Assembly: GCA_038889235.1 (NCBI GenBank)
Contig: JAWAHN010000002.1
Location: forward strand, 14,356 to 46,355
Length of the DNA stretch: 32,000 nt
Direction: 5' to 3'
From: Candidatus Jordarchaeales archaeon
Lineage (GTDB): Archaea > Asgardarchaeota > Jordiarchaeia > Jordiarchaeales > Freyrarchaeaceae
The notes under the pieces: model-generated
What the model saw: only the letters and a program-made list of their open reading frames with translations
The model's database searches: none
Told to the model about the DNA's origin: nothing
Translations under genes and position numbers: made by a program
In this document: positions 4,535 to 28,426 of the stretch, piece by piece
How the letters are laid out: every line of letters starts with the position of its first letter
How positions within the stretch are numbered: position 1 is the first letter of the stretch

Positions 4535-5326
4535 TCAACCCACCACCATGTGAACCCCTACGCAGCACAATAAAACGCCGAAAATCCTCCTCAGCCAAAC
4601 ACCGCTAATCTTGCCTGAAAGCGCGGAGCCAACTTGCCCCCCAATAGCCCCCCCAACACCCATAGCCAAGGCCAGCGCCAGGTTCACGTGGCCGAGGGAA
4701 ACGTGCACCAGCACCCCGGCAGCCGTCATAAAAATCATCGCGAGACACGATGTGCCGACAGCCACGTGAACCGGGACGCCGAGGCAGACGAGGAGAGGAA
4801 CCTGCACTACGCCCCCTCCAATACCCAGAAACCCTGAAGCCAAACCCGCTGAGAAGCCTCCAACCGTGACCAGCAAGAGGTTTAAGCCGCGACTCCTAAT
4901 CCGCCCCCCTCCCCCAAACCTACCGAAGCCCAAAATCATCGCCACCCCGACAGCCACGAGGCTTAAGGCGAACAACCAGCCAACCACCCTGCCGCTAACA
5001 ACACCGGTGAGCAGAGAGCCAAGCAGCGACCCGGGGATTGCCGACAACCCCAAGACCACCCCAAGAGGCCAGTCAAACCTCCCCCGCCAAATGTGGCCGA
5101 CAGCCGAGGACAAGGCGTTCATCCAAACGGCGACAAGACTGGACCCAACGCTGTCAACCACGCTCAAACCCCCCAAGTAATGCAGCAGCGGGACGTACAG
5201 GAAACCCCCACCGACACCGAGAAAGCCGCCAATCACTCCCACAAAGAAACCCAAAACAGACAGAAGAGCCAGCTCCAACGCCGACACCCCAGCCGCAGAC
5301 GACACACCAAAACACACCAAAAACAT
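4535..5326 (-). CDS. Sulfite exporter TauE/SafE family membrane protein
   Basis: Hydrophobic with duplicated G.GGG motifs (GGFLGVGGGFLYVP; SGFLGIGGGVVQVP) and AVGTS. True start may be GTG at 5287. Confidence 0.85.
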   Translation of the reverse strand: MFLVCFGVSSAAGVSALELALLSVLGFFVGVIGGFLGVGGGFLYVPLLHYLGGLSVVDSVGSSLVAVWMNALSSAVGHIWRGRFDWPLGVVLGLSAIPGSLLGSLLTGVVSGRVVGWLFALSLVAVGVAMILGFGRFGGGGRIRSRGLNLLLVTVGGFSAGLASGFLGIGGGVVQVPLLVCLGVPVHVAVGTSCLAMIFMTAAGVLVHVSLGHVNLALALAMGVGGAIGGQVGSALSGKISGVWLRRIFGVLLCCVGVHMVVG

Positions 5327-5903: not shown

Positions 5904-7401
<1,498 letters not shown>

Positions 7402-24694: not shown

Positions 24695-25249
24695 TTAAAT
24701 TTTTCCCTCCTGCGAGCCCTGACTACTCTTCTTAAATATAATCATCCTAGCTAAGTCGGCGAAAGCCTCGTTTATGTTCAAGCCCGTTTTAGCGCTAGTT
24801 TCGAAGTACAGCATATTATTCTTTATGGCGAACTCGAGCGCGTCTTCTAGGGGGACAGCTCGGGGCATATCACGCTTGTTCCCGATAAGGATTAACGGCA
24901 CACTACCACAATGAGTTCTAACCTCTTTGATCCATAAAGGCAGTCTCTCAAAACTCTCTACTTTGGTCAAATCGTAGACGCAGAAGCCGCCAACCGCACC
25001 CCTGTAATACAGCTGCCTGATGTGGCTGAACCTGTCCTGCCCGCTTTGGTCCCAGATCTGAAATTTAACCACTTTCCTCCCGAGGTGAGTGTCCACCTCG
25101 ATACTCTTCACGGCGAAGTCGACACCAACCGTCATCTTGTAACTTTCCTGGAATACACCCTCACTAAACCGCCTCGTTATAGAAGTTTTTCCAACGCCAC
25201 CGTCGCCAACTATCACAACCTTAAACAAGTACGCGTAATCCGCCGCCAT
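24695..25249 (-). CDS. Rab-like small GTPase
   Basis: G1 GDGGVGKTS, G2 YKMTVGVDF, G3 WDQSGQ, G4 NKRD, G5 ETSAK, plus YYRGA. ATG at 25249 (alternative 25267). Confidence 0.93.
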   Translation of the reverse strand: MAADYAYLFKVVIVGDGGVGKTSITRRFSEGVFQESYKMTVGVDFAVKSIEVDTHLGRKVVKFQIWDQSGQDRFSHIRQLYYRGAVGGFCVYDLTKVESFERLPLWIKEVRTHCGSVPLILIGNKRDMPRAVPLEDALEFAIKNNMLYFETSAKTGLNINEAFADLARMIIFKKSSQGSQEGKI

Positions 25250-25358
25250 AGTCCCTCCTCTCTCCACCGGTACATTCTGTAATACCCCTCTAGCAAAAGC
25301 CTAAACGACCAAAGCACCAAGTAAATTGGTCTTCGCCTTAATTATTAAGATTTTTTAT

Positions 25359-26054
25359 CTATGTTTTACCGTTCCTCTTCAAAGTTTTGTCTCGCCCTAA
25401 GTAAGCCAACTTCGCGATTTCAACGAAAAGCCCGTTCTCGACTACGCCCGGTATATTGTTTATCTTCTCCTCCAACTCCCCGGGGTCGTCTATTCTGGGA
25501 AACTTCGCGTCAAGAATGAAGTTCCCGTTGTCCGTCACCGTCGGCCCAACTTTTCCGCTCCCATGGCGTAACTCTACTCTCGCCCCAAGCTTTGCCAGCT
25601 TCGCAGCGACAGTCTTCCAAGCCACTGGTATGACTTCCACAGGTACTGGCGTTTTAACGCCAAGTTTCTCTACCAGCTTCGAACTATCAGCTATGACTAT
25701 CATCTCTTCGGAAGAAGAAGCCACTATTTTTTCCAAAGTGAGCGCTCCCCCTCTACCCTTAATCAGGTTAAGGTTAGGGTCTATTTCGTCTGCTCCATCC
25801 ACAGTCAAATCGAGTGTCGGGTGCTCGATCAGTGACGTTAAAGGTATCCCGTGCTCCGCTAACAGTATCGCCGATTGGTAGGACGTGGGGACGCATAAAA
25901 TCTCCAACTTCTCCTTCTTCACAGCGGACGCCAAAACCTCTATGAAAAAGGCCACAGTAGACCCGGAACCAACACCCAAAATCATACCATCCCTAACGTG
26001 TCTGACAGCTGCAAGCGCAGCAGCCTTCTTCTCTTCCTCAACTTCCACGCTCAC
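25359..26054 (-). CDS. rpiA: Ribose-5-phosphate isomerase A
   Basis: GVGSGSTV, DGADE, IKGRGGALTLEKIV, VPVEV, TDNGNFILD, PGVVENGLF. Confidence 0.96.
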   Translation of the reverse strand: MSVEVEEEKKAAALAAVRHVRDGMILGVGSGSTVAFFIEVLASAVKKEKLEILCVPTSYQSAILLAEHGIPLTSLIEHPTLDLTVDGADEIDPNLNLIKGRGGALTLEKIVASSSEEMIVIADSSKLVEKLGVKTPVPVEVIPVAWKTVAAKLAKLGARVELRHGSGKVGPTVTDNGNFILDAKFPRIDDPGELEEKINNIPGVVENGLFVEIAKLAYLGRDKTLKRNGKT

Positions 26055-26195: not shown

Positions 26196-26318
26196 AGCCC
26201 CGGCCGGGCTTTGAACCCGGGACCTTCTCATTTCTGGCATACCACCACTATAACGGGTACCAGTGAGACGCTCTAACCAGGCTGAGCTTTCCCGCTATAG
26301 ATGAAGGGGTACCGGGGC
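26196..26318 (-). tRNA. tRNA-Thr(GGU) with two introns: 22 nt at 8/9 (26289-26310) and 26 nt at 37/38 (26232-26257); CCA not encoded
   Basis: Removing both inserts gives a full cloverleaf: acceptor GCCCCGG/CCGGGGC with U73, D-stem GCUC/GAGC, anticodon stem UCUCA/UGAGA with loop CUGGUAA, and T-stem CCGGG/CCCGG with loop UUCAAAG. Both inserts form 4-bp helices with 3-nt bulges. Confidence 0.9.
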
Positions 26319-26354
26319 GCTCTCCGGGGCACTAGTTTCCTAAGAAGACTACTG

Positions 26355-26370
26355 GATATAAAAACCTTTT
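26355..26370 (-). promoter_or_regulatory. BRE-TATA promoter of tRNA-Thr
   Basis: Minus strand reads AAAAGG-TTTTTATATC, predicting a TSS near 26330-26333. Confidence 0.6.
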
Positions 26371-26438: not shown

Positions 26439-26550
26439 GCGGGGGTTGCCGAGCTGGTCAAAAAGTTGTTTGGGGTCAGAGACTAAAGGCGCCGGACTTA
26501 AGATCCGGTCCCGTAGGGGTTCGTGGGTTCGAATCCCACCCCCCGCACCA
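26439..26550 (+). tRNA. tRNA-Leu(UAA) with a 25-nt intron at 21/22 (26462-26486); CCA encoded
   Basis: Acceptor GCGGGGG/CCCCCGC-A-CCA, anticodon stem CCGGA/UCCGG with loop CUUAAGA, long variable arm, GGTTCGAATCCC. The insert forms a GGUC/GACU helix flanked by two AAA bulges. Confidence 0.95.
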
Positions 26551-26796
26551 CTTAGAATATCACTTCTTAGCATCCTAACGAAAAATTAAACGTTCCCGTC
26601 ACTCTCCTGTAAATTGTATCTTTGCGTCACCTTTTTCACAGCCTTTGGGCTCGAAAAGTTTTCCCGCTAACCTAAGGGTGATGCTTTAAGAGACGTGAAT
26701 GGCTTATCATCGGCTTATATCTCAAGCTGTGTGTGGAGGAACTTTAAAAAGGAGTTGCTGTTTGTCGTTTTTCATACACATTTACTGGGTGTTATC

Positions 26797-27978
26797 ATGG
26801 TTCGCAAGGTTGCTGTTGTAGGCTACGGGTGCCTAAAGATCGGCAAATATGGAGCCGAGCTTTCAGAGAACGAAATGGCGATTAAGGCGATAAAGTTGGC
26901 TTTGGAAGACGCTGGGATCTCAAAGGAGGACGTTGACGGTTTCGTCACAACTCCAAACTACCTTTTGACACTGGGCCTTCAGCTGTCTGTAGTCTCGGAG
27001 TACCTTAGGGTTTCGCCTAAGGTTGCGGCTGAGATCGCATGCGGCGGCATAGCTGCTGGTCTAGCGTTAAAACACGCGGTGAACGAAATAATGCTCGGCT
27101 ACGCTGACATCGTGGTTTGTTACGGCTCAGTTAAGGAGTCCATACGCTTCAAGAACATAGCGTTAATTGAACCAGGGATGGGCATTGAAATATACGACCC
27201 CGTTGTCCAACCCTACGCTGTGGCGGGCGTCATATGGGCTTATGCGTGCTCGGCTAGAAGGTACATGCACGAGTATGGCGCAACCGAAGAACACTTCGCT
27301 GCAGCCTGCGTGAGGGATAGGAATAACGCTAGATATAATCCCTGGGCGGCGTTCACCACTCCAATCACCGTTGAAGACGTATTAAAGTCCCCTGTCTTGT
27401 GTTCACCGTTAAAGCTCCTAGACTGCTCAGCTGCAAGAGATGGGGCTGCTGCAGTGATACTAGCGTCGGAAGAAAAAGCCCGAAAGATAACCGATACTCC
27501 AATATACATTGCTGGCATCGGGGAACATCACGACAATTCGAGCTTCATACCGACTGACAGCTGCGATAAACCTATAACATCATTCGTAGCTACTCGTGAA
27601 GCAGCCAGGCGAGCGTTAGACATGGCGAAGGTGGACGTTAACAACGTCGACGTAGCCGAACTTTACGCCCCCTTTAGCCCTCAAGAGCTCATGCTCCCAG
27701 AGGACATTGGATGGTTTAAGAAAGGAGAGATGGTTAAGGCGATAATGGACGGTTCCACAGAAATAGGTGGAAAAATTCCGATAAACACCGATGGCGGGCT
27801 CCTTTCTAGGGGGCATCCAGCCATGGTCACCCCCCTATACGAGGTAGTGAACATTGTGAGGCAGCTTAGGGGAGAAGCTGGGAAGCTTCAGGTGAGTGGC
27901 GCCGAGGTAGGTTTGATGCACTGTGAGGGAGGTATGCTCAACAACTGCATGGTTTTCATTTTCAGGAGAGGTGATTAA
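26797..27978 (+). CDS. Thiolase-family protein (SCP2-type / acetyl-CoA acyltransferase-like)
   Basis: VAVVGYG, IACGG, ARRYMHEYG, NARYNPWA, DCS...DGAAAVIL, INTDGGLLSRGHP. ATG 26797. Confidence 0.9.
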   Translation: MVRKVAVVGYGCLKIGKYGAELSENEMAIKAIKLALEDAGISKEDVDGFVTTPNYLLTLGLQLSVVSEYLRVSPKVAAEIACGGIAAGLALKHAVNEIMLGYADIVVCYGSVKESIRFKNIALIEPGMGIEIYDPVVQPYAVAGVIWAYACSARRYMHEYGATEEHFAAACVRDRNNARYNPWAAFTTPITVEDVLKSPVLCSPLKLLDCSAARDGAAAVILASEEKARKITDTPIYIAGIGEHHDNSSFIPTDSCDKPITSFVATREAARRALDMAKVDVNNVDVAELYAPFSPQELMLPEDIGWFKKGEMVKAIMDGSTEIGGKIPINTDGGLLSRGHPAMVTPLYEVVNIVRQLRGEAGKLQVSGAEVGLMHCEGGMLNNCMVFIFRRGD

Positions 27979-27979
27979 T

Positions 27980-28426
27980 GTGGCATATCACCCGGAAATA
28001 CTGTATCTTCAACCAAAGATCACAAGCGCGACGGCAAAATTCTGGGAGGGCCTGAAGAGCAGGAAGCTTCTAGCACCAGTGTGCAACGACTGCGGTGAAG
28101 TATTCTTCCCGCCAAGAGCGTTCTGTCCAAGATGCCTTTCAGAGAACTTAGGGTGGAGGGAACTCAGCGGCAAAGGGAAGCTTCACAGCTGGACAGAAGT
28201 CCACTATTTAGCCCCAAAACCTTACATACTCGGAGTCATAGACTTAGCGGAAGGCATAGGTAGAATGATCTCCAGAATTGAAGCGAAAAGTGATGAGCTA
28301 GAGATAGATATGCCAATGAAAATAGATTTCGTCGACGTTTCAGATAAACTCACCCTCTTCGTGTGGAAACCAGACAGGAGCAAAAGCAAAAACACCGAAA
28401 CAAAAAGCAGCCCTCAGCCACCTTGA
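27980..28426 (+). CDS. DUF35 Zn-ribbon/OB-fold protein (thiolase partner)
   Basis: FWEGLK, CNDCG..FFPPRAFCPRC, LSGKGKLHSWTEV, G..DLAEG. GTG 1 nt after the thiolase stop. Confidence 0.9.
   Translation: MAYHPEILYLQPKITSATAKFWEGLKSRKLLAPVCNDCGEVFFPPRAFCPRCLSENLGWRELSGKGKLHSWTEVHYLAPKPYILGVIDLAEGIGRMISRIEAKSDELEIDMPMKIDFVDVSDKLTLFVWKPDRSKSKNTETKSSPQPP

Follow-up and report, generated by a model that had tools for sequence, protein, structure and literature searches.

A tRNA-Thr(GGU) gene of a Jordarchaeales archaeon with an intron after position 8 and a leader copy of its acceptor strand proposed as a placeholder

The gene, its surroundings and its two introns

The window (the whole stretch of DNA analysed, 32,000 nucleotides) stems from a Jordarchaeales (Asgard) genome and carries on its minus strand a threonine tRNA gene, tRNA-Thr(GGU), which reads ACC and ACU and is interrupted by two introns (Table 1). 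The doubly spliced sequence of 75 nt is called tRNA-Thr(GGU) by ARAGORN and possesses a 7/7 acceptor stem, U8 and A9. Together, ACC and ACU make up 47% of the Thr codons in the long frames of this genome. The sequencing runs containing this stretch are hot-spring metagenomes, and a second sample yielded an identical 157-nt contig spanning 26153-26309, which makes it unlikely that the insert stems from faulty assembly. The tRNA contigs of one RNA library, in which the share of the organism is small, were only pieces from other organisms, with no contig of its own across the junction.

Two minus-strand genes flank this locus, encoding a Ras-family small GTPase (24695-25267) and ribose-5-phosphate isomerase A (rpiA, 25359-26054), as does a thiolase and ChsH2-type gene pair (26695-28426, +). 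The second tRNA between them is a divergent tRNA-Leu(UAA) (26439-26550, +) with a 25-nt D-loop insert at about 26462-26486, for which a 4-bp bulge-helix-bulge (BHB) helix can be seen by eye; this gene was missed by ARAGORN and lies below the Rfam cut-off. An archaeal 16S rRNA gene is situated at 5904-7400 (+); no other part of the window matches 23S, indicating that the rRNA genes are unlinked.

Table 1. Features of the tRNA-Thr(GGU) locus in window coordinates (H, h and h′: central, outer and intron-side helix of the BHB).
Feature	Position	Strand	Remarks
BRE (purine-rich) and TATA box	26357-26370; TATA TTTTTATA at 26364-26357	-	Read from sequence; putative promoter
Leader copy (GCCCCGG) repeating the acceptor 5′ strand; proposed as placeholder	26324-26330	-	Exact 7/7 copy
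Variable spacer from leader copy to G1	26319-26323	-	5 nt here, 3-9 nt elsewhere
Exon 1, G1-U8 (G1 = 26318, U8 = 26311)	26311-26318	-	7/7 pairing with 66-72 after splicing; supplies BHB central and outer helix
22-nt intron at 8/9	26289-26310	-	Strict BHB: H 4 bp, h 2 bp, h′ 1 bp
Exon 2, A9-A37 (A9 = 26288), anticodon GGU = 26261-26259	26258-26288	-	
26-nt canonical intron at 37/38	26232-26257	-	Strict BHB: H 4/4, h 5 bp
Exon 3, A38-U73; G60 = 26209; acceptor 3′ strand = 26203-26197	26196-26231	-	CCA not encoded

An earlier note on this DNA had described a 22-nt insert after U8, and both its place and its sequence were borne out. In register 8/9, exon C3-C4-C5-G6 pairs with intron CGGG in a complete central helix (4/4 Watson-Crick), the outer helix consists of G1-C11 and C2-G10, and the bulges are those that had been described. 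Register 9/10, which had been considered mismatched, indeed yields a central helix of only 1/4. The intron-side helix is minimal in this gene and comprises 1-8 bp in homologues. A strict BHB is obtained at 8/9 only. The claim that splicing requires the acceptor 5′ strand to be out of the acceptor stem is supported.

The register is mirrored in homologues, the closest of which reside in Jordarchaeales/Jordarchaeia genomes, with the complete Freyarchaeia genome representing a sister family. The central helix is 4/4 in 17 of the 18 homologous genes, with inserts of 14-26 nt; locus L004 belongs to this 18-gene analysis and stands outside the register tests and the folding of eight precursors described below. 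In the four other genomes of the same family (f1), the insert measures 14-16 nt and its last six positions are identical, while the Thr(GGU) genes of six Freyarchaeia genomes have no such insert. An 8/9 insert is found in the Thr(CGU) genes of six Freyarchaeia and nine Bathyarchaeia genomes. In two homologues the insert begins with G, and therefore only register 8/9 restores the mature sequence. In the six Freyarchaeia genes, exon U4 stands opposite an intron A, replacing C4-G; this was counted as one event and is read as a compensatory pair change.

It is extremely improbable that the gene is a pseudogene in which the insert is retained, with ACC and ACU being read by another tRNA. The assembly is 95% complete and a second gene could thus be missing; however, no other Thr(GGU) gene was found in this genome when the question of a sole gene, raised in the earlier note, was checked, and there is one match per genome across the order. 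Moreover, the exons are nearly invariant among homologues while the inserts have diverged, and the BHB is conserved with compensatory change. We are highly confident that the 8/9 intron is real and would be spliced at that site, and the insert is predicted to be a member of the known archaeal BHB intron class at a rare site. In line with the notion that a non-canonical intron needs a broad-specificity EndA, the genome contains two EndA paralogues (G000:C1:1056164-1056754 and C3:444282-444869). The alpha subunit is closest to the catalytic subunit of Aeropyrum pernix, aligns without gaps over the specificity loop and keeps the lysine; this loop and lysine are known to give EndA its broad specificity (PMC3241643). 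The second paralogue, by its sequence, looks like a structural (beta-like) subunit, and the genome is predicted to encode a pair of the (alpha-beta)2 type that has the broad-specificity loop. The genome also contains RtcB and RNase P RNA.

The G60 that the earlier note had called unusual is real but is common to the three congeneric genes and to most Thr(CGU) genes of Bathyarchaeia, and thus represents a lineage trait rather than decay. In the Bathyarchaeia Thr(CGU) genes L168-L186, the T-loop reads A54-U55-C56-R57-A58-A59-G60, combining an initiator-like A54 with G60. The 37/38 intron is predicted to be a recent gain, the four closest homologues being devoid of it. The three congeneric homologues encode UCCA and have no 37/38 intron, the opposite of this gene in both respects (26196-26190, -).

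Two expectations about detection and novelty held in part. Scanners were expected to miss the gene, and default ARAGORN did so, as it did most other tRNA genes of this genome, while the Rfam tRNA match (26204-26288, -; 29.1 bits) kept model positions 9-63 only. At a lowered threshold ARAGORN gave thousands of false calls, and a tRNA catalogue of 39 genes was built for this genome; it is incomplete in that about five further tRNA genes are unscored, none of which has an insert after U8 as judged by eye. On the other hand, tRNAscan-SE can call such introns, as follows from its coordinates in Supplementary Data 4 of PMC11291895, where the intron of Freyarchaeia Thr(CGT) begins at gene begin + 8. 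We confirmed this intron as 8/9, and the complete-genome coordinates match the published table. Hence, the site is rare, as supposed, but position 8/9 is not new, having been recorded in the 2024 supplement as bare coordinates and left unremarked.

A leader copy that accompanies early introns

Acceptor positions 1-7 are copied exactly in the leader, starting 12 bases before G1. Neither this copy nor the 37/38 intron nor the shortness of the intron-side helix is mentioned in the earlier note. The copy is located 26 nt downstream of the TATA box and should therefore be part of the transcript. The purine-rich BRE/TATA motif is read as a putative promoter, and the same motif lies 26-27 nt 5′ of the leader copy in four homologues. 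At genome frequency, the expected number of occurrences of a given 7-mer in 30 nt of leader is about 0.001.

The association between copy and intron was recovered by searches blind to the leader. A GTDB scan gave 19 matches, including six bacterial chance matches, and the copy was present in 13/13 archaeal ones. Of 80 loci retrieved in a metagenome search, 76 proved not to be such tRNA genes, and the copy was present in 4/4 real tRNA matches. An anticodon-arm-only search of 121 Bathyarchaeia genomes provided 12 Thr(CGU) genes, with a copy in 6/6 genes that have the insert and in 0/6 genes that do not. Among intron-less orthologues, no copy was found in six Thr(GGU) genes of Freyarchaeia and four Thr(CGU) genes of family f1. 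Every 8/9 intron found by the leader-blind searches in Jordarchaeales, Freyarchaeia and Bathyarchaeia was accompanied by a copy; related genomes are not independent, and these cases represent about four or five independent lineages. When a loose pattern was applied to 201 Asgard genomes, nearly all matches were due to chance.

Within the 39-gene catalogue, an insert after U8 is confined to Thr(GGU) and Arg(UCG), and these two have the strongest leader pairing with positions 66-76 (−19.1 kcal/mol for Arg(UCG) and −17.2 kcal/mol for Thr(GGU), followed by −12.3 kcal/mol for the next gene). Each copy matches its own acceptor, and the two acceptors differ. Similarly, the single 8/9 gene of the complete Freyarchaeum genome ranks 1/38 for leader pairing.

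The tRNA-Arg(UCG) gene (G000:C1:1074149-1074283, +; L031/L032) contains a 19-nt insert at the 8/9-9/10 junction, for which the best fit is 9/10 with a 4-nt 5′ bulge, a relaxed motif; its leader copy also pairs with G73-C74-C75. Copy and insert occur together in four genomes (this one and G001-G003) and are both missing in G004, and the Arg(CCG) paralogue, which has the same acceptor, shows neither. A tRNA-Glu(CUC) gene (L023; G060:C17, ~1430-1530) has a 34-nt intron at 10/11 with a 4/4 helix formed from positions 5-8. Its leader contains the copy GCTCCGG, which is missing in six intron-less relatives with the same acceptor.

A second, intron-less gene for tRNA-Arg(CCG), besides that at C1:487347, occupies 391-468 of the 5.7-kb contig G000:C6, with a partial copy of the 3′ end of tRNA-Arg(CCG) 4.2 kb away (~4590-4625); this resembles an integration site, or else the contig may be foreign. 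For the Thr(GGU) gene, an attachment site of an integrated element was considered and rejected: the repeat is only 7 nt long and 5 nt from the gene, and the neighbours are rpiA, tRNA-Leu, the thiolase gene and the ChsH2-type gene.

The isoacceptor carrying the arrangement differs among groups. Intron and copy are found on Thr(CGU) in Freyarchaeia (L216, G006:C1:1545409-1545248; L228-L232) and in some Bathyarchaeia (L168-L186, L194-L199), and the introns of these two groups start and end alike. In family f1, they are located on Thr(GGU), with Thr(CGU) free of both. This differing host suggests either a swap between isoacceptors or repeated gain.

The variation among the 18 genes shows signs of selection on pairing. 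Copy positions 1-7 are kept, the spacer varies in length, and position 8 is U in only 7/18 genes, as would be expected if this strand has to pair with 66-72 but does not become exon. Where the copy changes, pairing with 66-72 is retained, either by a U.G wobble (L181 and Arg) or with bulges of 1-2 nt (L004 and Freyarchaeia).

We rejected the reading in which the upstream copy is the true exon 1, either with one long intron up to A9 or with the 12-nt repeat unit as a second intron inside the acceptor strand. Such a gene would have the usual promoter-to-G1 distance (26 nt versus a median near 28), and in the 7/18 genes where U follows the copy, one long intron gives the correct mature sequence. 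However, the product would be devoid of U8 in the other 11/18 genes, this one included, the copies of L004 and Freyarchaeia contain extra bases, the Arg copy is cut short at 5 nt, and in Bathyarchaeia the intron-side helix starts right after the downstream U8. As to an acceptor-internal intron, splitting at 4/5 produces a 4/4 helix in this gene alone, with a best value of 3/4 in the other homologues tested. Correspondingly, an acceptor-stem (3/4-type) intron was rejected for the 12-nt repeat, as no n/n+1 register is 4/4 in more than one of four homologues. We regard this reading as very unlikely, though not to the degree of the pseudogene.

The copy could alternatively be the relic of a small tandem duplication that took place when the intron was gained, the intron being real and spliced either during transcription, when 66-72 has yet to be made, or through capture of a rare open conformation by EndA. 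In several ordinary tRNA genes of this genome, the leader terminates with UGGN, which is complementary to N73-C74-C75-A76. This UGGN context is kept by the upstream copies of Thr and Arg and places the copy at the ancestral position of G1; it occupies the G1 place of intron-less orthologues at the ancestral distance from the promoter, which fits an origin as a duplication by-product. In addition, the repeat reaches U8 in 7/18 genes, and transcription completes the BHB about 33 nt after G1, long before it reaches 66-72. A relic, however, should decay evenly, whereas copy positions 1-7 have been retained in different genera and in two phyla, with turnover of spacer, position 8 and intron loop, and the observed copy changes keep the pairing with 66-72. 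This explanation seems improbable, although it carries more weight than any of the other alternatives discussed here.

Folding of the precursor and a proposed order of processing

Eight precursors were folded in silico. In each of them, 66-72 is occupied by the copy with a probability of 0.72-1.0 and the true acceptor stem is then empty; when the leader is removed, the true stem forms with a probability of 0.85-1.0. For this gene, the BHB helix has a probability of 0.90 with the leader versus 0.02 without it. In unconstrained folding, the BHB is the main fold in this gene only, the other seven precursors misfolding elsewhere. With the helices enforced at 37 °C, the splice-ready fold of the 18 genes costs −5 to +4 kcal/mol with the copy, compared with +9 to +16 kcal/mol with a short leader and +3 to +12 kcal/mol with shuffled leaders. 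Thus, the copy reduces the computed splice-ready cost by about 8-18 kcal/mol.

In several genes the pairing extends beyond the acceptor stem over N73-C74-C75-A76, with four extra base pairs in L004, L005, L079 and Freyarchaeia and GGC in Arg. This extension could point to a copy selected mainly as an ordering or quality-control gate, which by occupying 66-76 prevents an unspliced precursor from being matured by RNase P, RNase Z or the CCA enzyme and ending up as a useless tRNA whose acceptor stem is locked, the speed of splicing being independent of the copy. The leaderless true acceptor stem, given its computed probability, would be a substrate of RNase P. Against it, the extension is missing in this gene and in many Bathyarchaeia (0-1 bp), and the copy-closed stem could itself be a substrate of RNase P. 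We consider this explanation unlikely, slightly more so than the relic; it overlaps with the placeholder reading, and the two are not exclusive.

The leader copy is, in our assessment, likely to be a selected placeholder for 8/9 splicing. With marginally less assurance, but still as a probable reading, we propose a functional two-intron tRNA-Thr(GGU) in which the placeholder leader strand would free exon 1 for EndA. In this model, transcription from the TATA box would yield a leader ending in the 7-nt copy of positions 1-7 and a 5-nt spacer. In the precursor, the copy is computed to pair with 66-72 and would leave the true G1-U8 free, which, again as computed, would form the BHB with the intron's 3′ end and G10-C11. 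The (alpha-beta)2 EndA would then cut after U8 and before A9, RtcB would presumably join the exons, and the 37/38 intron would be removed in the usual way.

After splicing, the copy is still more favourable than the true strand in nearest-neighbour energy, by 0.5-5.6 kcal/mol overall and by 0.5-1.2 kcal/mol in this gene, so that the hand-back needs tertiary contacts or cleavage by RNase P. We propose that the true strand exchanges back by branch migration, possibly helped by the U8-A14 tertiary core, and that RNase P may cut at the true G1, which would remove the copy and make the exchange irreversible; these are the weakest steps of the model. Finally, the 3′ end would be trimmed and CCA would be added.

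Relation to known systems and implications

Intron-crowded tRNA genes are established for Jordarchaeales (PMC11291895, Valentin-Alvarado et al. 2024; bioRxiv 10.64898/2026.10.13.758758, Goswami et al.). The non-canonical BHB introns reported for Asgard archaea in these two papers share with the present one the lineage, the motif, the size range and an (alpha-beta)2 EndA. The leader copy is unmentioned in them; the preprint pools a few acceptor and junction introns as 'other' and never uses the word leader. A review lists intron sites from 20/21 to 59/60 with 3/4 as an extreme and does not include 8/9 (PMC4090602). The acceptor-stem intron at 3/4 in tRNAs of Thermoproteales (Sugahara et al. 2008, as summarised in PMC4090602) resembles the 8/9 intron in that its BHB is incompatible with a closed acceptor stem, and differs in position.

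The split and permuted tRNAs of Nanoarchaeum, Caldivirga, Staphylothermus and Thermofilum (PMC3218864, PMC4090602) also make use of a leader or trailer that base-pairs to set up a BHB for EndA and is later removed. There, however, the BHB includes the extensions, which are paired to one another, whereas the leader of the Thr(GGU) gene lies outside the BHB, mimics a tRNA strand, pairs with the mature 66-72 and should be removed by RNase P. A split or permuted tRNA was rejected: the gene is colinear under one promoter and would be spliced in cis, and the leader copy forms no BHB. No paper describing a leader copy was found in the searchable literature, the key older papers and the tRNA-intron databases being outside its reach. 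The combination of an intron with a putative placeholder leader is well supported by comparison between genomes in two phyla.

A broader rule may be stated only tentatively, at somewhat less than an even chance: introns so near the 5′ end that their BHB has to borrow acceptor-strand bases would be viable only with a leader copy encoded in cis. According to this rule, the copy would be strictly required for splicing, would have had separate origins in several tRNAs, in Asgardarchaeota and Bathyarchaeia and thus in two phyla or more, and would have been gained together with the intron, or moved between isoacceptors, as one module (Thr-GGU in f1; Thr-CGU in Freyarchaeia and some Bathyarchaeia).

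The copy-plus-intron arrangement spans two archaeal phyla, Asgardarchaeota and Bathyarchaeia. ARAGORN and Rfam overlook genes of this type or cut them short, and the repeat can misplace the annotated 5′ end. Since the intron and the 5′-end duplication appear together, they offer a testable clue to how such introns arrive. A placeholder strand would explain the persistence of an intron where splice signal and acceptor stem compete for the same bases. The leader, discarded later, would serve as an RNA chaperone encoded in the transcript itself that puts splicing first and RNase P second, which would give tRNA leaders a structural job.
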